Below are positions 8,563 through 59,447 of a stretch of 59,968 nucleotides of DNA, piece by piece. How positions within the stretch are numbered: position 1 is the first letter of the stretch; every line of letters begins with the position of its first letter. This DNA comes from an uncultured Planctomycetales bacterium (GTDB lineage Bacteria > Omnitrophota > Gorgyraeia > Zapsychrales > GWA2-47-8): positions 4,376-64,343 of the forward strand of contig CAYING010000004.1 of NCBI GenBank assembly GCA_964364715.1, given 5' to 3'. The translations under genes were made by a program, and so were the position numbers. The notes under the pieces were generated by a model that ran no database searches, was not told the DNA's origin, and saw only the letters and a list, made by a program, of their open reading frames with translations.

Positions 8563-10143
8563 ATGGCAAAAGTTCTGATGATCAACCCGGTGATCAGGGA
8601 AGAAGACGACCCAAAGCATATTCCGTACGGCATAAGCCAGCTGGCCGGGATCGCTTTGAAGAAAGGGCATTTCGTTCAGATCTACGATGAGAACGCTTGG
8701 CGTAAGGGGCCCGAGGTCATGACGCAGGTCTGCAGGGCAGATGATTGGGATGTTGTGGCGATCGGCGGCCTTTCGACGACGTACGGTTCCGTGAAAAGAA
8801 CTTTAAAGATCATCCGCGGCTGCTGTCCTAAGGCTTTGATCATCGCCGGCGGCGGATTTCTGACGAGTATGCCGCGGGAGATGATGACCTGGCTGCCGGA
8901 GATCGACCTAGGGATCATCGGGGAAGCTTATGTGACTTGGCCGGAAGTCCTGGAAAAGATCACCGCTAAGGATTTTGATTTTTCGGAAACGCTGGGTGTT
9001 TGCTATCGCGCCAAAGACCGTACCCCTGTTCTCAATAATGTCCGGCCGAATATTAAAGACCTCGACGTTCTCCCGCACCCTGCCTGGGATCTGTTACCTT
9101 TAGAGATTTATTTTAAGAATTCACGCTTGCTGTACAGCGAATCAGCCTATATGTCGAAACGCCGGATCGATATTGGCGGAAGTTTGGGCTGCGGGCTCGT
9201 GTGCAAATTTTGCTGGCACTTGGGTACGACCGGTGACATGGTGATCGAAAAGGATGAAGAAGGGAACAACGATGTCCGTTTTTCATACGGGCGCAACATC
9301 CGTTACCATAGCCCGCGGTATATCGTGGATATGGTCAAAACGCTTGTTAAAAAATACAATGTCGATTTTATCAATTTTATCGATGAGAATTTAATGACCA
9401 TGGACGTTTCCAGTGGGCGAAGCTGGCTTAAAGATCTGTGCGATCTGTGGATCAAGGAAGGCCTCCAGCCGACGTCCCGGAGGGACAGCGTCCCAGATGA
9501 ACAGAATACGGGCGGGGTTTTTTGGTCAGGAACCAGCCATGCCAGTTTAGCGAAAAAAGAAACGTTGGATATTATGTACCGGGCGGGTTGTTCCCATTTG
9601 GTCTATGGGATCGAATCCTTTGATCCGTATATCCTGAAGCACTTGGGAAAAGGTGTAACCCAGAAGCATAATGTGGAAGCGTTGAAGATCTGTATGAATT
9701 CCGGCATCATGCCTTTGCCGAACATCATTATTGGGTTTCCCGATGAAAGTTTTCAAAGCATCCGTACAACGATAGAGTGGCTGATCAAATTAGGTATCCA
9801 TTGCAAACCCCATTTTGCCACTCCGTATCCGGGTTCGGAATGGTATTACGCCTACAAAGATTCAATTATGGAGCAGTATAACGGCAATCTTGAAGCGTTC
9901 ATTGAGTCGTTAGGGGATGCCTCCAAGATCACAGCAGTCATTTCCCATAAATTTTCACCTCTGCAGCTTTTGGGGCTGCAGCAGATCGTAATGCAGAGGG
10001 ATCTCCGACTTCTGGATCTGGCAGAGAAACATTGGGGCAATGCGGACGCCTTGATTAAACCCTTGGCTGTTCCAAAAATTTCGTTCAATATGATTAATAA
10101 GAAGGTCAAAGCCCCTGTCGAAGAGGTCAGCAAACCTATTTAA
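8563..10143 (+). CDS. B12-binding-domain radical SAM protein
   Basis: VLMINP...PYGI...IAGGG...GEA B12-binding domain, GCGLVCKFC, FIDEN, YGIES and TPYPGSEWY. Confidence 0.9.
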   Translation: MAKVLMINPVIREEDDPKHIPYGISQLAGIALKKGHFVQIYDENAWRKGPEVMTQVCRADDWDVVAIGGLSTTYGSVKRTLKIIRGCCPKALIIAGGGFLTSMPREMMTWLPEIDLGIIGEAYVTWPEVLEKITAKDFDFSETLGVCYRAKDRTPVLNNVRPNIKDLDVLPHPAWDLLPLEIYFKNSRLLYSESAYMSKRRIDIGGSLGCGLVCKFCWHLGTTGDMVIEKDEEGNNDVRFSYGRNIRYHSPRYIVDMVKTLVKKYNVDFINFIDENLMTMDVSSGRSWLKDLCDLWIKEGLQPTSRRDSVPDEQNTGGVFWSGTSHASLAKKETLDIMYRAGCSHLVYGIESFDPYILKHLGKGVTQKHNVEALKICMNSGIMPLPNIIIGFPDESFQSIRTTIEWLIKLGIHCKPHFATPYPGSEWYYAYKDSIMEQYNGNLEAFIESLGDASKITAVISHKFSPLQLLGLQQIVMQRDLRLLDLAEKHWGNADALIKPLAVPKISFNMINKKVKAPVEEVSKPI

Positions 10144-26870: not shown

Positions 26871-26898
26871 TTGACTTTAAGCTTTAAATCAACATAAT
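26871..26898 (+). promoter_or_regulatory. Putative sigma70 promoter of the B12 riboswitch leader
   Basis: TTGACT-N16-CATAAT, about 40 nt upstream of the aptamer. Confidence 0.55.
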
Positions 26899-26934
26899 AA
26901 GTCCAGATTTACTGAAGTTCCGTTCTTTACAATT

Positions 26935-27105
26935 CATATTGGTTCTCTGTCTTTCCGTTATAATAGGGAAGACGGCAGATCATCAAAGCTGCCGAGGAAA
27001 CTCAGAGATGAAATGGGAAAGGCCTGCGAAAATCAGGCGCGGTCCCGCCGCTGTAATCCAGACGCTTCGTAAACGCCTGGGGAGCCAGAACACCTGCCAA
27101 TATTA
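26935..27105 (+). ncRNA. Cobalamin (B12) riboswitch aptamer
   Basis: P1 ATATTGG/CCAATAT, GGTTC, TGAAATGGGAA, P4 CCTG-CGAAAAT-CAGG, GCGG-TCCCG-CCGC-TGTAA and B12 box GAGCCAGAACACCTGCC. Lies upstream of an ECF/DUF4430 operon. Confidence 0.92.
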
Positions 27106-27168
27106 AAATCATTGATTACTGCGCAAGACAGTGAGCGATGGATATTTTGGGACTAAGAAACAGGGTGC

Positions 27169-27210
27169 ACTCCCAATCGTCCGCCTCAGGCGGAGGTTGG
27201 GAGTTTTTTT
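27169..27210 (+). terminator. Riboswitch expression-platform terminator (attenuator)
   Basis: ACTCCCAA-TC-GTCCGCC-TCA-GGCGGA-GG-TTGGGAGT followed by a T-run, between the aptamer and the first gene. Confidence 0.88.
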
Positions 27211-27246
27211 ATTTGCCTACCATAATTTCAGAGAAGGCAAATAGAT

Positions 27247-27340
27247 ACCCCGCAAAGCGGGGTTTATTTTAGAAGGCCTAAATTTATGGAGCGAAGCGAA
27301 CATAAATCATAGGCACGAAATAATCCCGCGCAGCGGGATT
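27247..27340. repeat. Cluster of GC-rich triloop palindromes (REP-like)
   Basis: ACCCCGC-AAA-GCGGGGT, CCTAAATTTATG..CATAAATCATAGG and AATCCCGC-GCA-GCGGGATT. Confidence 0.6.
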
Positions 27341-27348
27341 GGCGAAAT

Positions 27349-30300
27349 ATGGTATCAAGGCAGAAAAAAAATTTTATCACCATCGGTTTAGGCGTGCTGC
27401 TGATCGCCGGCGCAGCCGCGGTGATCATGTCCAATGCGAGGGAAGACGGACTTTCGCCGAAGTGGGTGCAGCCGATCTTGGATAATCCGCTCATCCGTCT
27501 GACCGCGATCAAAAGTCCGGTTTATGCGCTGGAAGATCAAGCTGATTCAGAATTGAATTCAGACTCATCCGAAAAGGCAGGCAAGAGCGGTCTTCCTCAA
27601 GCGTCTTCCCGTCAAGGCCGCGTTGCCGATCCGCTCTCCGGCAGCAATTCTGCGCCCCCGCAAGCCGGAAAAAAGCAAAATAAGAACGGTAACGCGCCGG
27701 AAGACCAGGAAAAAGATTACGGGAATAAAAATTCGCAGGGAGCGTATGCGCGTGATTTGCCGGCGGGATTGGTGGACCAAGAATACTGCCGGTATCTTAA
27801 TCCGCAATGGGGAAGGGCGCCGTATCAATGGCAGCGTGCCGGAGGAAATTCTCCCACGGGAATTAATCTGGATACAGCCAGCGGTTATTTTTGCGGGACG
27901 CCGAGGGCGGCGGGCGTTTTTGCGTTCGATATTAAAATCAGCGATGGTTCCAGAAATTTTATCACGGTCCGTTACAATCTGGCCGTTGCCGCGTTCCTGC
28001 CGCCGGAAAGCTCGGGACCATTTAATATTACCACGGAGCGTATTCCGGGCGGTTTAGTGGGGGCCGATTACTTGATACAGTTTTCCACGACCGGCGGAGC
28101 GCTGCCGCATTCCTGGAATATTTCCTTTATCCCGCCGGGTTTAAATTTTGAATCTCGCTACGGGATGCTTTATGGAATTCCGCTGAGCGAAGGCCGGTAT
28201 TCTTTTAATGTGAGTGTGAGAGATGGGCACTCCATCCCGGCCGGTAAAGCTTTTGTTTTGCCGGTTCAAACGTCGCCTTTGTATGTCACGACCGGTTCGT
28301 TGGCGGCGGGAACCGTGGGCCGAAATTATTTTGAACAACTGCGCGCGCAGGGAGGAAGGCCGCCTTACAGCTGGCAGGTGATCGCGGGGATTATTCCGGC
28401 CGGATTGACCTTTAACAGCCTGGGAATTCTGACTGGAACGGCGTTGAATGCCGAGGCGCAGACGTTACGTTTTCAGGTGACTGATCGCGACGACAGTTCT
28501 GACAGTGTTGAATTAAGACTCAACGTTGTTAGCGGAGTTTTAAAGATTGATTCTGAGAATTTGACCGCGGGCGCCGTCGGTGTTCTCTATTATACGCAAT
28601 TATTGGCCAGCGGGGGTGTGCCGCCGTATCAATGGCAGATTTTAGCGGGTCAGCTGCCCGATGGATTGAATTTTCAAAATTCGGGAGTGATTTTAGGAAC
28701 ACCGGCGCAGTCGGGAGATTTTCCTTTGCAAGTGGAAGCGGCCGATCAAACCAACAGCCGCATACAAAAAAATTTAAATGTGCGGATCAATGCCTCGCCG
28801 TTACAAATCACCACTTTCAGCTTGCCCGACGCGCATGTGGCCATTGAGTATTTTCAGCAGCTGCAAGCCCAGGGGGGAAATCCTCCTTATCACTGGCAGC
28901 TTCAGTCGGGTCAATTACCCGTCGGGATATCGCTCAGCCCGGCCGGGGTCCTCTTTGGAACACCGCAGAATACGGCGGTGGAATCTTTTACCATGCTTGT
29001 TACAGACAGTCAGGAGCACTCGGATTCCGAGCCGTATACTTTGGTGGTCAATACCGAAACATTAACCGTATTAACCGATATTTTGCCCACGGCGCGTTTG
29101 ACGCAAAATTATCAACATCAGTTACAAGCTCAGGGCGGAGTCCCGCCTTATACCTGGATAATCACGTCGGGAAATCTCCCGCGGAACTTAATTTTTGTTC
29201 CGGATGGCACTCTGTCCGGAGCGCCGGAACAAACCGGGATTTTTCCTTTTAACGTCCAAGTGACCGATGCGCAAAATCATTTAGGAACAAAAATGCTGCA
29301 CCTGGATGTTATTGAACGAGATTTAACCATCACGACGACGGCGTTTCCGGATGCCACTGTGGGAGTTCCTTATAATTTGCAAGTCAACGCCGAGGGGGGA
29401 ATTTCTCCTTATGAATGGTCGATTGTCAGCGGCGGACTTCCCAACGGATTATTGCTGGACAGCAACAGCGGTATTATTTCGGGAACATCGGCGCAAGCGG
29501 GGAATTTTCCGATTTCATTGATGGTCACGGATACACTGAATAATGAATATCCGCGCGCGTTTACTTTGCGCGTGCTCGGCGCGCCGCTTTTGCTGACAAC
29601 GGTCGCTCTTTCCGGCGCGCAAGTCGCGGTCCCTTATCAAGATACTTTAACCGCGCAGGGCGGAACTCCGCCTTATATCTGGACGATTATTCCCGGAAAT
29701 CTTCCGATAGGATTAGGTTTAGATGCCAACCGCGGCATAATCAGCGGAACTCCGACGCTGGTGCAAACCGCGGCGTTTACCGTCCGGGTGGAAGATCAAG
29801 AGCAGAATCAGGATGTAAAACTTTTGAGCATCCGCGTTGATCCGCAGCCGTTGACTATTACCACTCAGAGTTTGCCCAATGGAGAAGTGGGGATTAATTA
29901 TAATTTTCTTTTAGCGGCCAGCGGAGGAAATCCGCCGTATGCCTGGCAGATCACGCAGGGACAACTTCCTGCGGGATTGCTTTTCGACGGCCAAACCGCT
30001 GCGATTTCCGGAACGCCCACGGCGGCCGTCACGAATCTGGCCTTGACGTTTAGGGCGACGGATGCGGCGAATAATTTTACGACGAGGAATCTGAATTTAA
30101 CCATTGATCCGGCGGGGCTGGGGCCGGTGACCGGATTCATCGCTCAAGCGTCAAATCAAAAGGCCGGTTTAGCCTGGGTCAATCCTTCCTCACCGCAATT
30201 TCATCACGCGCTGATTGTCCGTAACACGACGGGATTCCCGCAAACGCCGAATGACGGCACGGTTGTTTATTCCGGAACCGGAAATAATATGGTGGATGCC

Positions 30301-31122
30301 AATTTGGCGAATGACTCAACCGTTTATTACCGGGCCTTTGCCTATGATCAGGCGAATAATGTTGTTCCTCCCGGAACCAGCGGCCAGGGTTTGGCGGCAC
30401 CGCATGCGGTAACACTCAGCGGGCCGAATGATCCGTTTGCCGATGAGGTTATGAGTTTTACTCCTTTGAATCCCGGCAATTGTTTTGGGCTGGCTAATAT
30501 GCCGAATGTCGTGTTGGGCCCGCCGCGCGGCGCCGGGGAGTACGCGGGGTCGCTGGATGTTGTTTCTTTTCATGCCAAGGTCAACAACGATAGCGGAGCC
30601 GCGGCCCCGTACGGGGGGAGTGTTGTTTTAAAATTTAACAACAATATTGTCGTCAATGGCCCGGGGGTGGATTTTACAATTTTTGAGAACGCGCTTCATG
30701 CCTTCAGTACAACGAATTATTTTATCGAACCGGCGGTCGTGGATGTCAGTTATGACGGGGTGAATTTTTACCGTTTCCCGTTTGATTTTGTTCCGCACTA
30801 TACTCCGCAAAATCAATTGGATCTGCAGAATCCTTTTGCCTATCCCACCGGCTTTGCCGGGGTTAAACCGGTTTTAAGCAATAATTTGGTCCCTGACCCG
30901 ACGGACCCGGCGGTGTCGGGCGGTGACTCATTTGACTTGAATAATATTTCGCCCAATTTAACCTGGATCCAATATGTCCGGATTACCTCGACGGGAGATA
31001 ATTGGCTGCAGGATATGAACGGCGATTTTGTCCGGCACACGCATGGAAGTCCGACGTGGGGAGCAAGCGGGACGGGGAATTCGGGATTTGATTTAGATGC
31101 CGTTGCGGCGGTGAACTATTAA
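27349..31122 (+). CDS. Large surface protein: N-terminal membrane anchor, 9 putative-Ig (He_PIG-like) repeats, FN3-like domain and C-terminal BtuH-like domain; candidate cobalamin-capture protein
   Basis: Hydrophobic IGLGVLLIAGAAAVIM, nine ~88-aa repeats (GGxPPYxW..GxLPxGL...GTP), VTGFIAQ..LAWVNP..YYRAFAYD, and a C-terminal domain DPFADEV..DFTIFEN..EPA..GGDSFDL..GFDLDAV. First gene after the B12 riboswitch. Confidence 0.75.
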   Translation: MVSRQKKNFITIGLGVLLIAGAAAVIMSNAREDGLSPKWVQPILDNPLIRLTAIKSPVYALEDQADSELNSDSSEKAGKSGLPQASSRQGRVADPLSGSNSAPPQAGKKQNKNGNAPEDQEKDYGNKNSQGAYARDLPAGLVDQEYCRYLNPQWGRAPYQWQRAGGNSPTGINLDTASGYFCGTPRAAGVFAFDIKISDGSRNFITVRYNLAVAAFLPPESSGPFNITTERIPGGLVGADYLIQFSTTGGALPHSWNISFIPPGLNFESRYGMLYGIPLSEGRYSFNVSVRDGHSIPAGKAFVLPVQTSPLYVTTGSLAAGTVGRNYFEQLRAQGGRPPYSWQVIAGIIPAGLTFNSLGILTGTALNAEAQTLRFQVTDRDDSSDSVELRLNVVSGVLKIDSENLTAGAVGVLYYTQLLASGGVPPYQWQILAGQLPDGLNFQNSGVILGTPAQSGDFPLQVEAADQTNSRIQKNLNVRINASPLQITTFSLPDAHVAIEYFQQLQAQGGNPPYHWQLQSGQLPVGISLSPAGVLFGTPQNTAVESFTMLVTDSQEHSDSEPYTLVVNTETLTVLTDILPTARLTQNYQHQLQAQGGVPPYTWIITSGNLPRNLIFVPDGTLSGAPEQTGIFPFNVQVTDAQNHLGTKMLHLDVIERDLTITTTAFPDATVGVPYNLQVNAEGGISPYEWSIVSGGLPNGLLLDSNSGIISGTSAQAGNFPISLMVTDTLNNEYPRAFTLRVLGAPLLLTTVALSGAQVAVPYQDTLTAQGGTPPYIWTIIPGNLPIGLGLDANRGIISGTPTLVQTAAFTVRVEDQEQNQDVKLLSIRVDPQPLTITTQSLPNGEVGINYNFLLAASGGNPPYAWQITQGQLPAGLLFDGQTAAISGTPTAAVTNLALTFRATDAANNFTTRNLNLTIDPAGLGPVTGFIAQASNQKAGLAWVNPSSPQFHHALIVRNTTGFPQTPNDGTVVYSGTGNNMVDANLANDSTVYYRAFAYDQANNVVPPGTSGQGLAAPHAVTLSGPNDPFADEVMSFTPLNPGNCFGLANMPNVVLGPPRGAGEYAGSLDVVSFHAKVNNDSGAAAPYGGSVVLKFNNNIVVNGPGVDFTIFENALHAFSTTNYFIEPAVVDVSYDGVNFYRFPFDFVPHYTPQNQLDLQNPFAYPTGFAGVKPVLSNNLVPDPTDPAVSGGDSFDLNNISPNLTWIQYVRITSTGDNWLQDMNGDFVRHTHGSPTWGASGTGNSGFDLDAVAAVNY

Positions 31123-31135
31123 GGAAGGAAGAATT

Positions 31136-32068
31136 ATGAGTCAGAAAAAAAGAAATTATTTATTTTTTGAAATAATCTTTTTTGCCGTGTTGATGGTGAG
31201 TGCCGGCAACGCTCAAGAAAATGCGCAATTGTGGGTTACTAAAGATTTTTCACAAGAGACTCTCGTGAATAAAACCGTCAGCGTTAACGACGATTCGGTG
31301 ATGAGCATTTTGAACAATAACGCCCGGCTGGATACGGCCTTCGGCGGCGGTTTTGTCACCGGCATTAATGGGATTTTGTCGGATAGCGTTAACGGCGAAC
31401 AGAAAGATTGGTTTTATTATGTGAATGGTTTGTTGGCCAACGTCGGAGCTCTGCAATATTTTCCCAAGGCGGGAGACAACGTGTGGTGGGATTATCATCG
31501 TTGGAATGATGCCGTCTATGTCGCAGCGGTGATTGGCGCTTACCCGCAGCCGTTTTTAAGTGGAATCTCGGGAAAGGTTGAGCCGACGATCATTATTGTT
31601 TCCCCCCGGCTCATCGATACCGCCCGGGCGTTACAGCAAAGTTTAAAGGATCAAAACATCGCCGTGGTGGATGTCGCTGAATACACACCCCAAGCGGTGC
31701 AGGATAATCAATCTTATCGAATTCTCATCGGCGCATGGGCGGATTTAGAAAATGATCCGCAGATTAAAGATATCGTGAAAAATTCCCATAAGTCCGGATT
31801 CTTTATTCGATTCGACGGCGATGGGCTGCATCCGCTGGATATGTCGGGGAATCCTGCGCAGGCGTTTAAAAATGCGGCGGCGATTCTGGCCATCGGCGGC
31901 GGGTTTGCTCAAATCCCTCCTCGGTGGATCGTCACCGGCACCAGCGACGAGGAAGTGAAGAAGGCAGTGGACTTATTGATTTCGCACAGTGAACGTATTC
32001 AGTTTTATTCCGGCGCTGTTGTCGCCGGCAATGAGGTTGTGAATGTCCCGGTTATCGGTAAAAAATAA
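31136..32068 (+). CDS. Secreted DUF4430 (transcobalamin C-terminal-like) domain protein, probable cobalamin binder
   Basis: Sec-type signal peptide (..VSAGNA|Q) and GGGFVTGINGI..DWFYYVNG..VGA..Y..GDNVWWDY. Directly upstream of ecfT. Confidence 0.8.
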   Translation: MSQKKRNYLFFEIIFFAVLMVSAGNAQENAQLWVTKDFSQETLVNKTVSVNDDSVMSILNNNARLDTAFGGGFVTGINGILSDSVNGEQKDWFYYVNGLLANVGALQYFPKAGDNVWWDYHRWNDAVYVAAVIGAYPQPFLSGISGKVEPTIIIVSPRLIDTARALQQSLKDQNIAVVDVAEYTPQAVQDNQSYRILIGAWADLENDPQIKDIVKNSHKSGFFIRFDGDGLHPLDMSGNPAQAFKNAAAILAIGGGFAQIPPRWIVTGTSDEEVKKAVDLLISHSERIQFYSGAVVAGNEVVNVPVIGKK

Positions 32069-32963
32069 TAGTTTTTTGGAAAACATGCACACCGGCGTGT
32101 TGATTTTTTATTTTGTCACGCTGCTGGCGCTGTCGATGATTTATACCAATCTTCTCTATCTTTTTTTCCTTTTTGGGATGGTCGCCTTGGGCATTTGTTC
32201 CTGCGGTAAGGTCAAGGAATGGAGGCGCACGCTCCGCTTTGGTTTGGTCATGATCCTTTTTATTATTCTGATCAACATTCTGGTTTCGCGCGCCGGGCAG
32301 ACGATTCTTTGGGAGGGGCCAAAACTGCCGGTTTTTGGAAAATTATCCATTTCGCAAGAGGCGATAATCTTTGGTTTTACCATGGCGTTTAAATTGAGCC
32401 TTATCCTCAGCATTTTTTGCTGGTATGAAGCAGTCCTGCCGATTGATAAAACATTTTCTTTTTTTTCACGATGGGCCTCTAAATCAACCCTGGTGATGAT
32501 TCTCACCGCCATGTTAATCCCGCAGCTTAAGCGGCGTTTACACGACGCGGCCTGGGCCATGCAGGCGCGCGGGTATGAATTGCAGCCGGGCCGTTTAGGG
32601 AAAACGATTCGGCAAAGTTCGCCTATCCTGAAAATTATTCTGCTTTCGGCGCTGGAAGATTCGTGGCAGATTGCCGAGGCGCTTGAAGCCCGCGCTTTTG
32701 GCGCCGGGGCAAGAACATATTATTGCCGCACTATTTGGCGGCGGCGCGATACCTTGACGCTGTTTGTCCTGGGATTAATTTGGGCAAGTTTTTCAATGGG
32801 CCTTTTACAGCACAAAGGGTTTTGGGATTTTTATCCACAAACAGAATTTGTCTTTGACGCGGCAGATAGGAAACTAATTTCCGGGATATGTGCAGGTTTT
32901 TCAGTGATACCGTTTTTAAATGAATTGGGGAAACGATGGAATTATTTAAAATTCATCATCTGA
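32043..32963 (+). CDS. ecfT: ECF transporter transmembrane T component (CbrV-like)
   Basis: Multiple TM helices and two conserved Ala-Arg-Gly-type motifs (AMQARG, ALEARAFG). Confidence 0.9.
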   Translation: MSRLSVKNNSFLENMHTGVLIFYFVTLLALSMIYTNLLYLFFLFGMVALGICSCGKVKEWRRTLRFGLVMILFIILINILVSRAGQTILWEGPKLPVFGKLSISQEAIIFGFTMAFKLSLILSIFCWYEAVLPIDKTFSFFSRWASKSTLVMILTAMLIPQLKRRLHDAAWAMQARGYELQPGRLGKTIRQSSPILKIILLSALEDSWQIAEALEARAFGAGARTYYCRTIWRRRDTLTLFVLGLIWASFSMGLLQHKGFWDFYPQTEFVFDAADRKLISGICAGFSVIPFLNELGKRWNYLKFII

Positions 32964-34576
32964 CGTATTCTTATCCCGGGCAGAAGCAGGAAGCGTTAAA
33001 AGATATTTCCCTCACTATTCGGGAAGGGGAGTTTATTCTTTTAACCGGGCCGTCGGGAGGAGGGAAAACGACCCTCGCGCGTTTTTTGGGTGGTTTTATT
33101 CCTGAATTTTACGGCGGTTCGATTAAGGGGGAAGTTCATTTTCGGAATGAATCTATGTTTGAGCGTGATCATCGTAAAATTCGCCAAAGCATCGGCATGG
33201 TTTTTCAAGATCCGGAAAAGCAAATTATTATGAGCGAGGTGGAGCGGGACTTGGCGTTGGGTTTGGAAAATTTAGGCATTGAAAATTCTTTAATGAACCG
33301 CCGCGTTATCGAAACACTTCATTATCTTGGATTGATGCATTTGCGCAATCGTATGACTTCGGAATTATCATCGGGCGAAAAGCAAAAAGTGGCGATTGGT
33401 TCTATTTTGGCGATGCTGCCGCATATTTTGATTCTCGATGAGCCGACGTCGCAATTGGACCCGCTGGCCGCGAAAGAAATTTTCGAGATTTTACGCCGTT
33501 TAAACCGTGAACATGGGTTTACGATTATTCTCATCGAGCAGCGGTTGGAAGAATGTCTGGCCCTGGCCGGCCGGGTGATTATGCTCAGCGACGGCCGTAT
33601 CGTGGCTGATGAAAATCCGAAAGAATTTGCCGCTAAAGTTTTTGCCGAATACGAAGAATTGCTGCCGGTGATTCCGCGGTTGTTTTGTCGGCTCAAGGAA
33701 AAAGAGATTCCGCTAACGGTGGCTGAGGCCCGGCCGCAAATTCTTAAGGGAAGTTGGAAAGAAAATATTGCTCAACGGCAAAAAGAAAATAGCGTCAGCT
33801 CCTCGCCGCTTATTGAGATAAAAAATTTGAGTTTTTCTTATCAGCAAGACAATGTTCCGATCATTGAAAATTTAAATTGTTCTTTTGAGGAAGGCAGATT
33901 GGTTGCGATCCTCGGAGAAAATGGGGCCGGGAAAAGTACATTACTCAAACTTTTAGCCGGCCTGTTGCAGCCTTCGTACGGCAAGATTTTATTTGCGGGA
34001 AAAGATGTTTCCCTCCTTAGTATTAAAGAACGGGCCCAAAGAATTGCTTATCTGTCACAAAATCCCAGCGACTATTTATTTAATGAAACGGTGGAAGATG
34101 AGTTGTTGTTCACCATGAAAAATTTGGACATGAATTTCGATGAAAATACGATAACGCAAATGTTAAGCGAACTTAGCATCGGTCATCATCGCCGTCATTA
34201 TCCTCGAGACTTGAGCGCCGGAGAAAGGCAGCGGGCGGCGCTGGCCTCCATTTTAGTGGCGCAGCCGCGGGTCTTGATATTAGATGAACCCACGCGCGGC
34301 CTTGACGGTTCTCTCAAGCGAAAATTAGGTGAGTTGTTTAAACAGCTTCAGCAGCAAAAGAAAACCGCTATACTTTTGGTCACGCAGGATGTGGAATTTA
34401 CGGCCAATTATGCGGATCAAATTATTTTATTTTCTCAGGGAAAAATTGTAGACCAGGGGCAGCCAGAGCAGATACTGGACGGAAATCTTTTTTATTCTAC
34501 TGCGATCAATCGAATGTTCCGCGGCGTTGTCAATAACGTCATTAATTTAAAACACGCTGAGGCCTTGTTAAGATGA
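32936..34576 (+). CDS. ecfA: ECF transporter fused A-A' ATPase (CbrU-like)
   Basis: Two ABC domains: GPSGGGKT/VFQDPEKQ/LSSGEKQ/LDEPTSQLDP and GENGAGKS/QNP/LSAGERQ/LDEPTRGLD. Confidence 0.92.
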   Translation: MELFKIHHLTYSYPGQKQEALKDISLTIREGEFILLTGPSGGGKTTLARFLGGFIPEFYGGSIKGEVHFRNESMFERDHRKIRQSIGMVFQDPEKQIIMSEVERDLALGLENLGIENSLMNRRVIETLHYLGLMHLRNRMTSELSSGEKQKVAIGSILAMLPHILILDEPTSQLDPLAAKEIFEILRRLNREHGFTIILIEQRLEECLALAGRVIMLSDGRIVADENPKEFAAKVFAEYEELLPVIPRLFCRLKEKEIPLTVAEARPQILKGSWKENIAQRQKENSVSSSPLIEIKNLSFSYQQDNVPIIENLNCSFEEGRLVAILGENGAGKSTLLKLLAGLLQPSYGKILFAGKDVSLLSIKERAQRIAYLSQNPSDYLFNETVEDELLFTMKNLDMNFDENTITQMLSELSIGHHRRHYPRDLSAGERQRAALASILVAQPRVLILDEPTRGLDGSLKRKLGELFKQLQQQKKTAILLVTQDVEFTANYADQIILFSQGKIVDQGQPEQILDGNLFYSTAINRMFRGVVNNVINLKHAEALLR

Positions 34577-35253
34577 TGGTCGATAAAGGGTTATTATTTT
34601 TTGCGGGAGCAGCAATCTTTATGGGAGGGTATTTGCTATTTTTTGAGCGCAAAGCGGTTTCGAGTAAAGAGATTGTCTTGATTTCTGTTTTAGCCGCGAT
34701 GGCTGCGTTAGGGCGAGTCCCTTTTGCGGTTATTCCCGGCGCTCAACCCACAACTTTTATGATCATCATCAGCGGTTATATTTTTGGCCCTATGGTTGGT
34801 TTTATCGTCGGTATTGCAGCCCCGCTGGTTTCGAATATTTTCTTGGGGCAAGGGCCGTGGACGATTGTGCAGATGTTTACCTGGGGACTGTGCGGTATTT
34901 CGGCAGGATTCTTAGGGAAAATTTATCCCCATGCCCCGCGGTGGTTATTGATCGTTTTTGGTTTTTTCTGGGGATATCTTTTTGGCTGGATTATGAATGT
35001 CTGGTACTGGCTGTCGTTTATTTACCCGTTGAATTTCAAGACGTGGATTTATACTTATGCGGCTTCGTTTTGGTTTGACACGGTTCATGCGGTTACCAAT
35101 TTTATTTTCTTTTATTTCTTGGGAAGCGATTTTATCGTTATTCTGCGGCGGTTTAAACAAAAGTTAAGTTATTCGCATCAAAAAGTTTTTTTTAAATCAC
35201 CAGCCCCGCCTTTGGCGGAGCGGAGAGGAGTTGAAGATGAAATGTTTTATTAA
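34573..35253 (+). CDS. cbrT: ECF transporter S component, CbrT-like (cobalamin)
   Basis: FFERK..KEIVLISVLAAMAALGRVPFA.IPGAQP, VSNIFLGQGPWT..QM..WG and FD..HAVTN. In an operon under a B12 riboswitch. Confidence 0.8.
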   Translation: MMVDKGLLFFAGAAIFMGGYLLFFERKAVSSKEIVLISVLAAMAALGRVPFAVIPGAQPTTFMIIISGYIFGPMVGFIVGIAAPLVSNIFLGQGPWTIVQMFTWGLCGISAGFLGKIYPHAPRWLLIVFGFFWGYLFGWIMNVWYWLSFIYPLNFKTWIYTYAASFWFDTVHAVTNFIFFYFLGSDFIVILRRFKQKLSYSHQKVFFKSPAPPLAERRGVEDEMFY

Positions 35254-37870
35254 GCAATCAGTTTTGATTTTGGGATTTTTGGGCATGGGGATTCTCTCGA
35301 ATATCCCGGAGGCCGCTGCGGTTAATCTCACCGTCAAAACAGGGTATGCCGATCAACAATCCACCGTGAATGCCGACGGCGGTTTTGATTATCTGCCTAA
35401 CGGCGATGTTGTTATTATTCGTAATGGTATTGCTCTAACGCCGTTCATTTATATTGTTGATGCCAACGGAGATAATGTCCCGGCTGCGCCGCAGCTCATC
35501 GGCAGTATGCCTTCCGGAACGTTTAGTTCCTTTATTAAAGTTTCCCCAAACGGAACTTTTGCGGTTTTTGGGGCGACCGGATCGACAAACCCGATCAGCA
35601 AAATTAATCTATCAACTTTTGCGATCACAAATATTACCAGCATTAGCGGAAACCAAAGCCTTGCTTTTCTCAGCAACAACGAGGTTTTAATCAGTTACAA
35701 TGCCAGTTTTAGCCCTGCTTCCCCCAATCAAATTGCGTACCTTCAATTAAGTAATCCAAGCTCTCAACGGGTTCTTGCCGATATTGCCAATACTCCTTCC
35801 GGCCCCATTGCTCTCAAGGGAGGAAATCTTTATTATGTTAAAAGTACTTGGGCATTTCCGGCTCCGCCGAACAGCCATCGCCTTTTAAAGTTTCCCAAGG
35901 CAAAAATGGATCAGGCTTTATCAACGGGAATTATTTTGCGCGAGTCTGACGCGCAATTGATTACCACTCTCGACGGCGGATATGAGCTGGCGGTGAATGA
36001 ATTTAGCGATATTCTTGTCACGGATTTGAGCGGCAGAGTTTTTAAAGTCAATGAGTTGACCGGCGCGAAGGAGAACTTTTGTATAACTCAGAATTTTCCC
36101 AATGACGGGAGTTTCACACACCTCACATTTTATAAACGTAACCGGTTTTTTAATCCTTTTGAAAAATCAGAGTCGAAATTAGGAACACTTTTTGCGGATA
36201 TTACTTACAGTAATTTCACTTTAGTTCAATTAAGCCCGGTGGTTTCTGATCCATGGGCCGATAATATTATATCGTTTCAGCCGGGGCAGGGCGGGAGCGC
36301 GAATGCTGCCTTGGCTTTAGGGGCGCCCATCGGGGGCGGAACAGCCGTTCCCAATAACAGTTCTCTAGTTTTATTAGGCGATCGGGATAATCCAACGACG
36401 GCCAGTCCGGCAGCGTTGACACTTGGTTTTAATAATTCTATTCGAGATAATGCTCAAGATCTCTATGGCCTGGATTTCACGGCTTTTGGGAATTCATTTT
36501 GGGCTGGAGGAAACTCCCAGAATCGTTTTGCCGAACCGGCTATTATGGAAGTCAGCGCCGATCTCAATCACAACGGCCTGCCCGATGATGAATGGTTTAT
36601 GATTAATCCGAATACTTTACCGGCGAACTTAGGGCCGGCTAATCCGGTGCAATATAACACGCTGACCTTACGCGGTTACGCGGATTATTCTCCGACGCTG
36701 ATTTTGGGCGATACGGATGGAAATAATATTGTTAATAATCCCAATATGCCGCCGGAAGATTTTTATACGGTTCCGGACCGATTATGTGTGCCAGGCGATG
36801 CCCAAAGTTATCTGGTGGACAATAATTCCGGCGGCGGGGATTCGGCTGATATTCGGGATGGTGTGGTGCAAACTTCACCCGGTGTTCCGTTGGTTGATTT
36901 TGCCGGCCGCAATCGGTTTGTTCATCTTGATCGAGTTGATTTTGTCCGGCTGCGCGATGCCCGTAACAGCGATATTTATACGGGGATCGGTTTATCAGCG
37001 GCGGATATTGATGCGGTGGCCGCGACCAAACCCAAATTGCGCGGCACTACCACGACGGTGAGTAACGTGAGCCAGCTGATAGCAGCTTTAGCGGCCGCTG
37101 TCCCAGGGGATGAAGTTATTATGAACCCGGGAGTTTATCCGGTTACCGCGGCGCTGGTCGTTCCTCGCGGCGTCAGTTTAAAAGGAAATGCCGGTTTATG
37201 GACTCCGGATGATCCCAGCGATGACACTGTTATCCGTGGCGCCGGCCTTCCTTTAGGAGCACCGGCGATCAGCCTTTCCGATCCAGCCGGAACATTTTCC
37301 TATGAGCAGGGCTATGAAATTTCCGGAATTCATTTTGAAAAACTCGCCATCGGCATTCAGATCGATCGTCTCTATCCGGCGATTCAGTATAATTTTTTCA
37401 AAACCGCTTCGCAGTCGGTTGTGATCACGAATGCCTCCGCCAATAAAACCGTTATCCGTTACAATGTTTTTGGCGATGTCCGTCAGCGCCCTTCGATCGG
37501 CATTGACGCGGATAACAGCAAATTAGTCATCGTTCATAACACATTCGTCAATCATTCGGCGGCAGCGGCTTTTTTTCGAAATAATACGGCGGAAGGTTAT
37601 TTGAGAGATAATATTTTTTATGGTAATCAACTTGGTGTCTCCGCCGCCAACAGCGGATATGTTTATGGGCATTACAATGATTTCTTTAGAAATGGGATCA
37701 AGGCTAATCTCTCGGCGAGCGGTCTCATGGAAAATGATGTTTTATCTAAACCTTCTTTTGCGGCGGAGAAAGAAGGTGATTACCGCCTCCAAGTTAATTC
37801 ACCGGTACGCACTCTGGGCATGGGAGGGGCTGACCCGGGTGTTTACGATGGACCGAATTTTTATCCATAA
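35237..37870 (+). CDS. Large secreted protein: beta-rich (propeller-like) N-domain, central BtuH-like domain, C-terminal right-handed beta-helix
   Basis: Signal peptide (..PEAAA|V) and RBS GAGGAG. Central DPWADNIISF..DFTAFGNSF..EPAIMEVSADLNHNGLPDDEWF..GYAD..GGGDSADI..VDFVRL..DIDAV. C-terminal PGDEVIMNPGVY, Asn-ladder repeats and DYRLQ..SP. Confidence 0.65.
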   Translation: MKCFIKQSVLILGFLGMGILSNIPEAAAVNLTVKTGYADQQSTVNADGGFDYLPNGDVVIIRNGIALTPFIYIVDANGDNVPAAPQLIGSMPSGTFSSFIKVSPNGTFAVFGATGSTNPISKINLSTFAITNITSISGNQSLAFLSNNEVLISYNASFSPASPNQIAYLQLSNPSSQRVLADIANTPSGPIALKGGNLYYVKSTWAFPAPPNSHRLLKFPKAKMDQALSTGIILRESDAQLITTLDGGYELAVNEFSDILVTDLSGRVFKVNELTGAKENFCITQNFPNDGSFTHLTFYKRNRFFNPFEKSESKLGTLFADITYSNFTLVQLSPVVSDPWADNIISFQPGQGGSANAALALGAPIGGGTAVPNNSSLVLLGDRDNPTTASPAALTLGFNNSIRDNAQDLYGLDFTAFGNSFWAGGNSQNRFAEPAIMEVSADLNHNGLPDDEWFMINPNTLPANLGPANPVQYNTLTLRGYADYSPTLILGDTDGNNIVNNPNMPPEDFYTVPDRLCVPGDAQSYLVDNNSGGGDSADIRDGVVQTSPGVPLVDFAGRNRFVHLDRVDFVRLRDARNSDIYTGIGLSAADIDAVAATKPKLRGTTTTVSNVSQLIAALAAAVPGDEVIMNPGVYPVTAALVVPRGVSLKGNAGLWTPDDPSDDTVIRGAGLPLGAPAISLSDPAGTFSYEQGYEISGIHFEKLAIGIQIDRLYPAIQYNFFKTASQSVVITNASANKTVIRYNVFGDVRQRPSIGIDADNSKLVIVHNTFVNHSAAAAFFRNNTAEGYLRDNIFYGNQLGVSAANSGYVYGHYNDFFRNGIKANLSASGLMENDVLSKPSFAAEKEGDYRLQVNSPVRTLGMGGADPGVYDGPNFYP

Positions 37871-37973: not shown

Positions 37974-38001
37974 TTGACACTTTTTGCCGATTCTTTATAA
38001 T
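37974..38001 (+). promoter_or_regulatory. Consensus sigma70 promoter of the nonulosonate cluster
   Basis: TTGACA-N16-TATAAT, both hexamers perfect. Confidence 0.8.
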
Positions 38002-38068: not shown

Positions 38069-38641
38069 ATGTCTGGTGAATTTTTAGACGAGCGGGAATT
38101 CGAGTTGGTCAACATTATCGGTGCCAAATTAGGCTCTAACCAGCGCGAGCTGTCCCGCCAAATGGAGCTGTCTTTGGGCCAAACCAACATGCTCATCCGC
38201 CGGCTCGTGGCCAAAGGCTATATCCGCATTACCCAGCTGAATAAAAAAAAGATTCAATACCTGCTCACCCCCAAAGGGTTTGCCGAGAAAATGCGCAAGT
38301 CGGTCAAATACACCATCAAAACCATCACCTCGATCGAACTCATCACCGATAAAGTTAAAGAAGTGGTAAAAAGTTTATACGCGCAGGGCGAACGCGATTT
38401 TCTCGTGTTAGGCCGTTCGGATTTTGCGCTTTTGATCGAAATGATCATCAAGAGAGAGGGCTTCTTGGACTGCCGCGTCAGCTATCTGGACGACGTGCCG
38501 CCGTCCGAAATGAAAGGGACGCTGTTGGTCTGCAAAGAAGGTGTGTCTTCTGAAAATTTTAACGGCCGGCGGGTCATTGATTTTATTCACGAATTATCAA
38601 AGGATGATTATCTCGCGAGCCCGCGGGAGGAGAAAGGATAG
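38069..38641 (+). CDS. MarR-family EPS-associated winged-helix regulator with a C-terminal Rossmann-like domain
   Basis: NQRELSRQMELSLGQTN..L.RLVAKGYI and YLLTPKGFAEK, characteristic of polysaccharide-locus MarR regulators. Confidence 0.85.
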   Translation: MSGEFLDEREFELVNIIGAKLGSNQRELSRQMELSLGQTNMLIRRLVAKGYIRITQLNKKKIQYLLTPKGFAEKMRKSVKYTIKTITSIELITDKVKEVVKSLYAQGERDFLVLGRSDFALLIEMIIKREGFLDCRVSYLDDVPPSEMKGTLLVCKEGVSSENFNGRRVIDFIHELSKDDYLASPREEKG

Positions 38642-57741: not shown

Positions 57742-57839
57742 GTAACGGCTCTCAATTAAAAAATAAAAAACTTCTGTTTTTGCAGAATCTTGTTACAATA
57801 AAACCAAATCAAAAACACTCTAAAAGGGGTCGGTTCGGT

Positions 57840-59447
57840 ATGGAATCTACGGTTGTTGACGAGTCAAAGTCTGACACAACTCTCTGCAGTATCTCTGATT
57901 TCAGGGTCATGGTCATTAATCCGCCGCAGGCATTTTCGAAGTTCGAAGTCGCGGCCGGTATCTCGCCGCCTCTCAATGTTATGTATTTAGGGGCGGTTTG
58001 CGAGAGAAAAGGTTATCAGATAAAGTGTTTGGACGCTTTGGTGGAGGCCCCTGCGCAAGTTACCGAATTAAAACCGACCTATTGCGCCCGCAGTTTAAAA
58101 TATGATGAGATCGTAGGCCGCATTGATCCGGCAACGCATGTGGTCGGCATCACTAATCTTTTTTCCGTTGCTTTCCCGATCGTTTTAGACCTTACCAAAC
58201 ATATTCGCGCAGACTATCCGCATATAAAGATCGTTGTCGGCGGGGCGCATCCTTCGGGGACACCGAAGGAAACGTTGAAACACCCTTCCATTGATTTTGT
58301 TATTTTAAGCGAGGGCGAAGATACTTTTATTGAACTGTGTGAATCTATCCGCACCAATCATTATGAAAATTTGCCCGCGATGGACGGGATCGCGTTCCGT
58401 AAGGGTGAAGAGATCATTGTTAAGCCTAAAACTAAATTTAATCAGAACCTGGACGCGATGCCGTTCCCGGCCAGGCATTTGCTTCCGCACAACCGTTATT
58501 CCGAATTGCACGAAGCGCACGGCCCGACGCAGGCGAAATATACGACGATGCTGTCATCCCGCGGCTGCCCGTACCGCTGCACATTTTGTACGCCGCAGTT
58601 GTGGAATTTTTCCTGGAGGATCCGTTCCGCCCAGAACGTCGTTGATGAAATGGAATTTTGCGTCAAAGAATACGGCGTTACCGAATTTCATTTTGAAGAT
58701 GAAAATTTGACGATCGACAAGCGAAGGATCTTGGAGATGTGCAACGAGATCAAAAGGCGCGGCCTGAAGGTCAAGTGGCAGACCCCGAACGGGATCCGGG
58801 CGAGCGTCACTGATTTTGAAATGCTTAAGGCGATGAAGGACTCGGGATGTTACCACATTACCGTCGCTCCGGAATCAGGTTCGCAGCGTGTCCTTAAGGA
58901 TATTGTCCAGAAAACTCAAAAGCTTGAGCAGGTTAATCTGGTTATTGAACGTGCTTCCAAACTTGGCATTAATGTGGCAGCCTATATGATGCTTGGCCTG
59001 CCGGGTGAAACTAAAGACGATGTCGAACAATCGATCCAATATATCAAACATATGGCCAGGATCGGGCTCGATGAATTCGCCTATGCGGTTTTCACGCCTC
59101 ATCCGGGGTCTGCGCTTTATACAAAATTGAAGGCGGAAGGCAAAGTTCCACAGACTTGGGAAGAATTGGCCAATGTCAGCGATATGACCAAGGCAAAATC
59201 CTGGTCGGAGTTTATGACTGATGACGAAGTTTATCAGTTAAGAAATCGCGCCTACCGTGAATTCTTTTTCACCCGTTTAAGGTATCATCCGTTGAAAATT
59301 CTTAAAAGCGTTTGGAATATCTTAAGAGGAAAGGAAACGCTTAAAGGCGAACGCGTTATTTTGACGTTCATCCGGCGGACGATCCTTGGGAAACTCAAAT
59401 ACAACAAATCAGAAAATAAAGCAGAACCTCATTTGGCGGCAGTTTAA
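57840..59447 (+). CDS. B12-binding-domain radical SAM protein
   Basis: VINPP..PPLN..YLGA, VGGAHPS, SEGE, SRGCPYRCTFC, FEDEN, APESGSQRVL and PHPGSALY. Start position is uncertain. Confidence 0.9.
   Translation: MESTVVDESKSDTTLCSISDFRVMVINPPQAFSKFEVAAGISPPLNVMYLGAVCERKGYQIKCLDALVEAPAQVTELKPTYCARSLKYDEIVGRIDPATHVVGITNLFSVAFPIVLDLTKHIRADYPHIKIVVGGAHPSGTPKETLKHPSIDFVILSEGEDTFIELCESIRTNHYENLPAMDGIAFRKGEEIIVKPKTKFNQNLDAMPFPARHLLPHNRYSELHEAHGPTQAKYTTMLSSRGCPYRCTFCTPQLWNFSWRIRSAQNVVDEMEFCVKEYGVTEFHFEDENLTIDKRRILEMCNEIKRRGLKVKWQTPNGIRASVTDFEMLKAMKDSGCYHITVAPESGSQRVLKDIVQKTQKLEQVNLVIERASKLGINVAAYMMLGLPGETKDDVEQSIQYIKHMARIGLDEFAYAVFTPHPGSALYTKLKAEGKVPQTWEELANVSDMTKAKSWSEFMTDDEVYQLRNRAYREFFFTRLRYHPLKILKSVWNILRGKETLKGERVILTFIRRTILGKLKYNKSENKAEPHLAAV

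Follow-up and report, generated by a model that had tools for sequence, protein, structure and literature searches.

A cobalamin-riboswitch operon combining two types of BtuH-like domain with a CbrT-type ECF transporter in an Omnitrophota bacterium

The stretch analyzed here, which we call the window, comprises 59,968 nucleotides of contig CAYING010000004.1 (assembly GCA_964364715.1) from an uncultured bacterium of the phylum Omnitrophota, and it contains a six-gene operon behind a cobalamin riboswitch. The first and the last gene of this operon each encode a domain, copy 1 at the tip of gene 1 and copy 2 in the middle of gene 6, and both domains are established homologues of the B12-binding domain of BtuH. 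That the two domains bind corrinoids is likely, and we consider it probable that the operon as a whole is a B12-repressed scavenging and import system in which both BtuH homologues bind corrinoid.

Layout of the operon and its predicted importer

Six co-directional genes, separated by short gaps or overlapping, run from 27349 to 37870 behind the riboswitch. The importer they encode is of the energy-coupling factor (ECF) type, composed of T, A-A' and S components, and the features of the region are as follows.

26871..26898, + strand: promoter-like site (TTGACT, 16 nt, CATAAT) ahead of the riboswitch; 10/12 matches in a consensus scan
26923..27115, + strand: cobalamin riboswitch aptamer RF00174; 64.6 bits against a gathering score of 31.5, E 1e-13
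27169..27210, + strand: terminator-like hairpin, then a T run; from the RNA fold of 27100-27360
27349-31122, + strand: gene 1, an open reading frame of 1257 amino acids (aa)
27349..30426, + strand: N-terminal part of gene 1; hydrophobic N-terminal segment, low-complexity linker and nine He_PIG immunoglobulin (Ig)-like repeats that form a stalk
30427..31119, + strand: C-terminal tip of gene 1 (residues 1027-1257); copy 1, short ("d1") BtuH-like type
31136..32068, + strand: gene 2, exported DUF4430 protein (Pfam PF14478)
32043..32963, + strand: gene 3, ECF transporter T component (Pfam CbiQ, E 3.7e-10)
32936..34576, + strand: gene 4, fused double ECF ATPase A-A' with two ABC_tran stretches
34573..35253, + strand: gene 5, ECF S component, CbrT-related (Pfam ECF_trnsprt, E 1.1e-12)
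35231-37870, + strand: gene 6, an open reading frame of 879 aa
35231..36244, + strand: N-terminal part of gene 6; signal peptide and, from the structure model, a beta-propeller (residues ~34-338)
36245..37024, + strand: residues 339-598 of gene 6; copy 2, long ("d2") BtuH-like type
37025..37870, + strand: C-terminal part of gene 6; right-handed beta-helix, NosD-like (Pfam NosD, E 6.2e-8; Beta_helix, E 8.5e-5)

The original prediction, made from the letters alone, had placed the two copies in the first and last genes of a B12 operon, and the RF00174 aptamer upstream of the six genes bears this out. The aptamer is full-length (model positions 1-189 of 189), scores above the gathering threshold and is the sole cobalamin riboswitch in the whole 2.16-Mb assembly. 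It is followed by a hairpin with a long G+C-rich stem and then U7, the complete 27100-27360 fold having a z-score of -6.2, and this hairpin is likely the expression platform through which the riboswitch acts by transcription attenuation. The promoter-like site is a pattern match only, and the number of such sites in the region is not above that in shuffles. Beyond gene 6, a perfect sigma-70 consensus (TTGACA, 16 nt, TATAAT) at 37974-38001 precedes a small unrelated helix-turn-helix (HTH) gene at 38069-38641 and marks the end of the operon.

Both copies lie in frame inside real open reading frames, copy 1 constituting the last 231 residues of gene 1. Copy 2 had been placed at 36245-37025; the start of this interval is correct, whereas its end is one base past the codon boundary, the in-frame stretch being 36245-37024. 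Pfam recognizes He_PIG in nine stretches of gene 1 (E 2.8e-81), and at E<=10 no Pfam model matched either copy or the N-terminal part of gene 6. The hydrophobic N-terminus of gene 1, a putative export signal read by eye, would serve as a signal peptide or anchor, and its translation shows no lipobox cysteine.

Genes 3 to 5 together encode a predicted ECF-CbrT-type importer, with a CbrT-homologous S component, a T component and ECF ATPases. Gene 4 matches TIGR04520 (ECF_ATPase_1) at 405 bits against a cut-off of 315, while the 32.9 bits of gene 3 for TIGR02454 are below the cut-off of that model. The sole match of the gene 5 S component among Protein Data Bank (PDB) sequences is 6fnp_A (E 3e-13, residues 32-201). 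Entry 6FNP is the ECF-CbrT vitamin B12 transporter of Lactobacillus delbrueckii (Santos et al. 2018, available part of PMC5997447), and we infer that its chain A is CbrT from its 182 residues and the name "Membrane protein". The DUF4430 domain of gene 2 reaches 64.6 bits for PF14478 against a cut-off of 23.8 over residues 52-121. According to the accessible portion of PMC4350170, DUF4430 sits at the C-terminus of TCN proteins, which are B12 carriers of the transcobalamin type. The gene 2 protein had no meaningful match among PDB sequences, and Atlas features scored 0.79 or less on its C-terminal half and were not usable. With riboswitch and CbrT-type importer in the same operon, the two BtuH-like domains are encoded in a B12-riboswitch-controlled locus for predicted cobamide uptake. 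The other hallmark of the BtuH family, a surface lipoprotein working with BtuB-BtuG, was not found here: the operon holds no TonB-dependent receptor, and no cysteine follows the signal sequence of gene 1 or gene 6.

Cobamide auxotrophy is probable for this bacterium, as is the lack of cobinamide salvage. No CbiC, CobS or CbiB was found in its 94%-complete genome, and control genomes gave the expected matches. Elsewhere in the window, three radical S-adenosylmethionine (SAM) genes with an N-terminal B12-binding domain (653-2164, 8563-10143 and 57780-59447) sit among polysaccharide and nucleotide-sugar genes, placing B12 consumers near the uptake operon.

Relationship of the two domains to BtuH and to each other

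The proposal that both stretches hold the same domain was confirmed at two levels: the copies align by pairwise BLASTP at E 8e-12 (28% identity over 274 columns), and the profiles of their families match in a hidden Markov model (HMM) comparison with a probability of 99.6% (E 1.4e-23, 107 columns). A tblastn search of the window with copy 1 likewise found copy 2 (E 9.6e-9). When the 2.16-Mb genome was searched with a profile of both types, exactly two places were found; since both window copies were part of that profile, only the absence of a third copy is informative.

The only solved relatives of the superfamily to which the copies belong are the B12-binding domain of BtuH2 and the BtuH domain of BtuG1. 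The former is seen in entry 7BIZ, which is B. thetaiotaomicron BtuH2 (BT1956) with bound B12 (Putnam et al. 2022, available part of PMC8941943). The latter lies in chain B of entry 8BLW, which is BtuG1 (BT1490), a BtuG-BtuH fusion with a C-terminal BtuH domain of ~250 residues (Abellon-Ruiz et al. 2023, available part of PMC10404256). Copy 2 alone reached both chains by phmmer against PDB sequences (8blw_B at 3.6e-7 and 7biz_A at 1.6e-4), over the stretch EP.I..V..D.N.NGLPDDEW. A domain-only profile of both types (A4, 29 sequences) extended these matches across the whole domain, at 1.2e-18 for 8blw_B (chain 393-656) and 1.2e-12 for 7biz_A (chain 222-485), with no other chain at E<=1, and a profile of the copy-2 type (A6) gave 1.6e-30 and 3.8e-19, respectively, over chain positions 222-485. 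In the alignments to 7biz_A and 8blw_B one can see the motifs that the original prediction gave for BtuH (GNAF, EPG, NGLPDD.W, GYAD and IDFV).

We also compared each type by HMM-HMM alignment with 21 Bacteroidota BtuH- or BtuG1-like proteins, among them "YncE family protein [Mediterranea sp.]" and "Ig-like domain-containing protein [Tannerella sp.]". The copy-2 type matched this set with a probability of 99.95% (E 9.8e-39, 238 columns) and the copy-1 type with a probability of 93.8% (E 1.8e-7, 105 columns), the latter over the N-terminal half only; the relationship to BtuH that had been suggested was thus recovered for both. A profile of 116 sequences, mostly of the copy-1 type, gave 1.3e-7 against 8blw_B, and copy 1 is additionally tied to BtuH through copy 2 by the profile match between the copies.

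Other family names were considered for the domain. DUF4465 is BtuJ and was rejected as the identity of BtuH or of the copies, neither of which matches PF14717 at E<=10. PF22842 and PF26182 appear in precomputed annotation of relatives, but neither turned up in local Pfam scans at E<=0.01 and E<=0.001; PF26182 could be a more recent model covering part of the Bacteroidota proteins. NF033170, the model of the LIC_13355 family, matches copy 1 at 60.8 bits (E 1.2e-16, profile 53-218, window 30439-30957) and copy 2 at 19.5 bits, both short of the curated cut-off of 120 bits, which by sequence makes the copies relatives of the LIC_13355 family that are outside the family as curated.

Structure prediction led to the same solved proteins. 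The AlphaFold2 model of copy 1, built with no templates from a 116-row alignment, has a mean pLDDT of 96.4 and a pTM of 0.93, and its best PDB match by Foldseek is 8blw_B (E 1.1e-5). Among 48,161 representative chains its top matches are 7BIZ (Z 14.4) and 8BLW_B (Z 14.1), in agreement with the proposed structural kinship to BtuH; these two entries rank first both when the Foldseek list is re-ranked by VIA-align and in the Foldseek-independent search of the 48,161 chains. On 7biz, VIA-align superposes 165-167 residues of the model with an rmsd (root-mean-square deviation) of 3.3-3.4, covering entry residues 317-593. The next matches are PAPP-A (Z 9.2-9.8) and jelly rolls of the carbohydrate-binding module (CBM) type CBM32 (about 8). 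The CBM32 module of AlyQ is among the structural matches, and AlyQ is named as a remote structural neighbor of BtuH2 in the available part of PMC8941943.

For gene 6 we modeled residues 1-598 (pLDDT 88.1, pTM 0.74). Foldseek again returned 8blw_B as the best match (E 4.9e-16, 721 columns), followed by 7biz_B (E 9.2e-9); the TM score to 8blw_B is only 0.27, so the domains are oriented differently in the gene 6 model. The fold of copy 2 is seen only within this two-domain model, whose Z-score list is filled by the propeller, 8BLW not being among the 50 best Z rows. Residues 34-338 match Pizza6, PknD, propellers of the SMP-30/lactonase type and related structures (Z 24-25, rmsd 2.3-3.2), and because the model shows a propeller there, gene 6 has the architecture of BtuG1, a propeller followed by a BtuH-type domain. 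Compared with BtuG1-like proteins by hhalign, the propeller itself gives a weak match that is not significant (probability 17.7%, E 0.0014), and the Atlas feature score of 0.87 for NHL/YncE-type clusters is a lead only.

Alignment of 29 domains reveals that the superfamily occurs in two forms. In addition to the NGLPDDEW loop that it shares with BtuH, the long form, which includes copy 2 and relatives from Planctomycetota and Omnitrophota, carries a specific insertion, LGD.DGDN..D...PEDFYTVPD. The short form, which includes copy 1 and hundreds of small exported proteins, has neither the loop nor the insertion. The insertion of the long type (window ~36686-36720) looks like a calcium loop of the EF-hand or dockerin type and is absent from Bacteroidota BtuH.

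In a maximum-likelihood tree of 28 domains the d1 and d2 types are split with support of 100/100 and each window copy falls with its own type, copy 1 as sister to the copy of locus L028 and copy 2 together with those of L002, L017, L024 and L001. The copies are therefore old paralogues and not the product of local duplication. A recent tandem-type duplication with redundant function would fit two copies in one operon with a shared motif order; given that the copies are 28% identical, that each has orthologues in other contigs across the fully supported split and that their large insertions differ, we regard such an origin as extremely improbable.

The pair of types is also not confined to the window. 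A tblastn search with nine operon parts found it in six other contigs (L017, L019, L024, L028, L067 and L001). In L019 and L028 both proteins accompany DUF4430, T, A-A' and S genes in the order of the window operon. In L017, L024 and L067 both proteins accompany DUF4430 and ECF genes with the gene 6 homologue first, and L017, which comes from a different family of the same phylum, has a riboswitch in front. In L001 the two proteins are side by side, with no transporter within the available sequence. The joint retention of these two old subtypes in at least six other contigs speaks for different jobs, which may concern ligand range, affinity or position in a relay. A pairing unlike the short-plus-long arrangement of the window occurs in L047, where two short-type domains (412-972 and 1621-2172) are ~650 nt apart.

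Relatives, riboswitches and corrinoid binding

The superfamily is large and has no Pfam model. A profile search of 1.84 billion representatives, counted as 50% identity clusters, found 5778 clusters at E<=0.001, 2939 at E<=1e-10 and 673 at E<=1e-30, and the source names on its members include Planctomycetes, Phycisphaerae, Chthoniobacterales, Kiritimatiellia, Myxococcales, Binatia and Dormibacteraeota. Within Omnitrophota itself the domain was present in only 2 of the 150 other genomes searched and is therefore not a general trait of the phylum. In an even sample of Planctomycetota it was present in 10 of 100 other genomes, with a cobalamin riboswitch at 8 of the 10 places; at one further place the contig ends 2 nt beyond the match on the upstream side, and the upstream region is thus beyond the contig.

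The association with the riboswitch extends to both types. All 13 genome loci of the long type have RF00174 upstream of the gene and in the same orientation. For the short type we examined 80 metagenome loci that had been fetched by conserved peptides and not by riboswitches. Screening these with an nhmmer profile built from 15 riboswitches gave 31 matches, all upstream and on the strand of the gene; re-testing with Rfam confirmed all 23 matches so tested (the other eight are seen by nhmmer only) and added one more among 14 nhmmer-negative loci. Where at least 2000 nt of upstream sequence were available, a riboswitch was present at 26 of 39 short-type loci.

The genes around these relatives point in the same direction. 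TonB-dependent receptors share riboswitch operons with d1-type genes in four of five loci (L045, L065, L029 and L046, not L076), and TonB-B12 models are among the best NCBIfam matches of the receptors in short-type loci, below cut-off. BtuF-like binding proteins occur in L045 and L065, the latter also having FecCD and an ABC ATPase. In relatives the domain is fused to DUF4465, the BtuJ family, and to DUF4430.

Several relatives show unusual architectures. Protein P0383 (1550 aa, metagenome) combines cadherin-like domains, DUF4430, three SLH repeats and a long-type BtuH-like domain, and so unites two accessory modules that the window operon encodes in separate genes. Proteins P0296, P0299, P0300, P0314 and P0385 carry a DUF4465 annotation together with the BtuH-like domain. 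In Planctomycetota, a DUF4465 (BtuJ-type) gene lies directly upstream of a BtuH-like gene behind a riboswitch (L007 7171-8040); the DUF4465 assignment was confirmed by scan for L007 and P0296 and is precomputed annotation for P0299, P0300, P0314 and P0385. Another Planctomycetota genome has tandem cobalamin riboswitches (L109 4061-4270 and 5282-5476) upstream of one BtuH-like gene.

In BtuH2 the B12 contacts are Gln333, Asn399, Phe401, His476, Tyr510, Trp511, Trp577 and Leu578, with Asn399 contacting the phosphate (available part of PMC8941943). We mapped these by sequence alignment to 7biz_A, where chain index plus 100 reproduces all eight. Both window copies have asparagine at the counterpart of Asn399, as do 261 of the 268 domain instances aligned. 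Near invariance across the superfamily extends to five more positions, namely Asp in G.DF, Glu in EP, Ala in G.A and both Asp in GGD.FD, the last two being Asp in 256 and 264 of the 268 instances (window ~36830-36850 and ~30919-30939). The same source describes the conserved surface of BtuH as a pocket near the phosphate, with Ca2+ and Na+ bridging to the ligand, and the near-invariant asparagine fits this phosphate-side pocket. Gln333 is kept, in PAPGQF, in Planctomycetota long-type proteins.

Several observations weigh against a B12-scavenging operon in which both domains bind corrinoid, beginning with the binding site itself. Asn399 is the only one of the eight BtuH2 contacts that both copies retain. 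At the place of Phe401, copy 2 likewise has Phe but copy 1 has Leu; at that of Tyr510, copy 2 has Tyr but copy 1 has Phe; and both have Ala for Trp511, the placement of Tyr510 and Trp511 being alignment-dependent in that two alignments agree and a third differs. His476 falls in an insertion specific to Bacteroides and missing from both copies, neither of which retains Trp577 or Leu578, and Gln333 is Asn in copy 1, whereas copy 2 reads PGQGG with a Gln two alignment columns earlier. With the contact residues mostly not kept, the corrin-ring contacts of 7BIZ are not simply transferable to these domains. Conversely, GGD.FD is absent from BtuH2 and BtuG1, where 7BIZ reads QRNGFK and 8BLW_B EFSQFK. 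Copy 1 further lacks the D.N.NGLPDDEW loop that copy 2 and BtuH have; on its own it had no match among PDB sequences at E<=10, and a small d1-type profile reaches 8blw_B by sequence only at E 0.0021. The fold is a galactose-binding-like jelly roll common to CBM32 modules (Z about 8).

The genomic context contributes further points of this kind. No riboswitch was found within the available flank at 13 of the 39 short-type loci, within 6 kb of the Planctomycetota place L108, or at L028, the closest relative of the operon. In two of the 13 (L024 and L067) a gene 6 homologue lies upstream, so that a riboswitch would be beyond the available flank. At L028, short-chain dehydrogenase and methyltransferase genes occupy the upstream region (1-1875), with 44 nt between the unrelated methyltransferase gene and the first module gene. 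Finally, the only Plug-domain TonB-dependent receptor of the genome (L099 1-1986, - strand) scores best as one of the siderophore/FecA type, at 143 bits; BtuB models reach only 34 bits on it, and no BtuB-like outer-membrane route for B12 is apparent.

These residue differences raise the question of whether only the long-type copy 2 binds corrinoids, with copy 1 keeping the fold for another job such as docking, ligand handover or binding a different molecule. In copy 2, Asn399, Phe401, Tyr510 and the NGLPDDEW loop are all retained, and its matches to BtuH range from E 1e-19 to 1e-39, while copy 1, with Asn399 as its one retained contact and no such loop, matches BtuH weakly by sequence (E 0.0021 and 1.8e-7). 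In addition, a short-type Leptospira relative, the lipoprotein LIC_13355, has been studied for binding host components in a paper that contains none of the terms "B12", "cobalamin", "riboswitch" or "BtuH" (PMC11891782). Nevertheless, short-type genes lie behind cobalamin riboswitches at those 26 of 39 loci, often without a long-type copy, and also occur in operons of the BtuB/BtuF type, and the phosphate-contact Asn together with four acidic positions is nearly invariant in both types. We therefore consider a division in which copy 2 alone binds corrinoids unlikely.

The jelly-roll fold would also suit a second alternative, in which both domains are general carbohydrate- or surface-binding modules, similar to CBM32 or discoidin domains, in adhesins with which a host-dependent nanobacterium attaches, and are merely co-regulated with the importer by the riboswitch. 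Modules of the CBM32 and discoidin kinds have this fold too (Z 7-8), Ig-like stalks and a beta-helix are joined to the domains, as are dockerin-like repeats in relatives, and Omnitrophota are described in the available text of PMC10066038 as host-dependent and rich in adhesin-like proteins. Against this, BtuH stands ~5 Z units above every CBM and BtuH chains are the only significant PDB sequence matches; the link to the riboswitch recurs in unrelated phyla and in different types of operon, and the fusions with BtuJ-type and DUF4430 domains point to B12. We find an adhesin role quite improbable on these grounds.

Proposed cobamide relay and comparison with known systems

As a B12-repressed scavenging and import system, the operon would be transcribed when B12 is low. 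Its exported proteins would then capture scarce cobamide outside the cytoplasmic membrane, with gene 6 and the DUF4430 protein acting closer in than gene 1, which would work from the tip of its long stalk. Each domain would bind the corrinoid mainly via the phosphate region of the nucleotide loop, a mode suggested by the near invariance of the BtuH2 phosphate-contact Asn across the superfamily. The captured cobamide would be handed to the CbrT-like S component for ATP-driven import, in a relay that would resemble BtuJ/BtuH/BtuG of B. thetaiotaomicron, with an ECF importer taking the place of BtuB-BtuG. At high B12 levels, B12 bound by the leader would favor the terminator and transcription would stop.

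A more specific version, which we offer tentatively as a possibility, is that a complete extracellular cobamide relay has been rebuilt around an ECF importer from three or four non-interchangeable modules, with the two domain types differing in ligand range or affinity. These modules would be the short-type tip on the Ig stalk for distal capture, the long-type domain on the propeller protein, the DUF4430 protein and the S component. The types might differ, for example, in the lower ligands they accept or in a role of Ca2+ at the phosphate, and the short type, which has neither the Ca-loop-like segment nor the ring contacts of BtuH, may bind corrinoids in a manner unlike 7BIZ.

Collectively, these data indicate that the BtuH domain is one branch of a large superfamily and not just a specialty of gut Bacteroidota. 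In Omnitrophota, Planctomycetota and metagenomic lineages its members are linked to cobalamin riboswitches, and they serve importers of both the TonB and the ECF type. The window presents the case of two ancient subtypes that flank a DUF4430 protein and an ECF importer of the CbrT type, within a small genome with no detected cobamide synthesis or salvage genes. If binding proves true, thousands of "hypothetical" exported proteins would gain a function, the superfamily would offer a natural experiment on the minimal B12-binding core of the fold, and there would be a lead on competition for B12 by poorly understood, host-dependent environmental bacteria. The LIC_13355 family may likewise deserve a B12-binding test.

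BtuH-like binders had been predicted to extend beyond Bacteroidetes. This holds for homologues, given those in Omnitrophota and Planctomycetota, although it is not new in principle, with three Firmicutes already in print. A 2026 review states, in its available part, that BtuH homologues are found predominantly in Bacteroidota, plus three Firmicutes (PMC13616437). One of the three Firmicutes btuH homologues, Eubacterium siraeum EUBSIR_01285, lies beside an ECF-like cobamide transporter (available parts of PMC8941943 and PMC13616437). It is thus a BtuH-type gene outside Bacteroidota next to an ECF-type transporter, as here, noted in the accessible text as a one-line BLAST match. The breadth across Omnitrophota, Planctomycetota and environmental groups was not found in the literature searched, although Table S3 of Putnam et al. 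may name more; no paper was found that links BtuH to Planctomycetes, the BtuH-protein papers among the matches listed all concern Bacteroides or BtuJ, and those on DUF4430 with cobalamin contain nothing on an ECF/BtuH-like system.

BtuJ proteins (DUF4465) are exported beta-jelly-roll B12 binders that stand under riboswitches in many phyla (PMC13398666). They are a different family from the two copies, and are fused or adjacent to the domain in relatives. With ECF-CbrT (6FNP) the operon shares a homologous S component, along with T and ATPase components. It differs in that its ATPases are fused into one chain, in being a dedicated operon under riboswitch control and in its three exported accessory proteins; the available part of PMC5997447 mentions neither a riboswitch nor DUF4430.

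The closest likenesses are to the two solved Bacteroides proteins. Both by sequence and by Foldseek, copy 2 matches BtuG1 best, and in both BtuG1 and gene 6 a propeller precedes the BtuH-type domain. The gene 6 propeller is not demonstrably BtuG-like, and gene 6 has an extra C-terminal beta-helix and no BtuB partner. BtuH2 is a lipoprotein with three PKD domains that serves BtuB-BtuG, whereas gene 1 has nine He_PIG repeats, no lipobox and an ECF partner; the corrin-ring contacts His476, Trp511 and Trp577 of BtuH2 are not kept here, just as the GGD.FD of the superfamily is absent from BtuH2. The two nonetheless share a homologous globular domain with the phosphate-contact Asn retained, an uptake locus under B12-riboswitch control, and a common layout in which an N-terminal export signal, putative in gene 1, is followed by an Ig-like stalk that carries the binding-type domain at its C-terminal tip.

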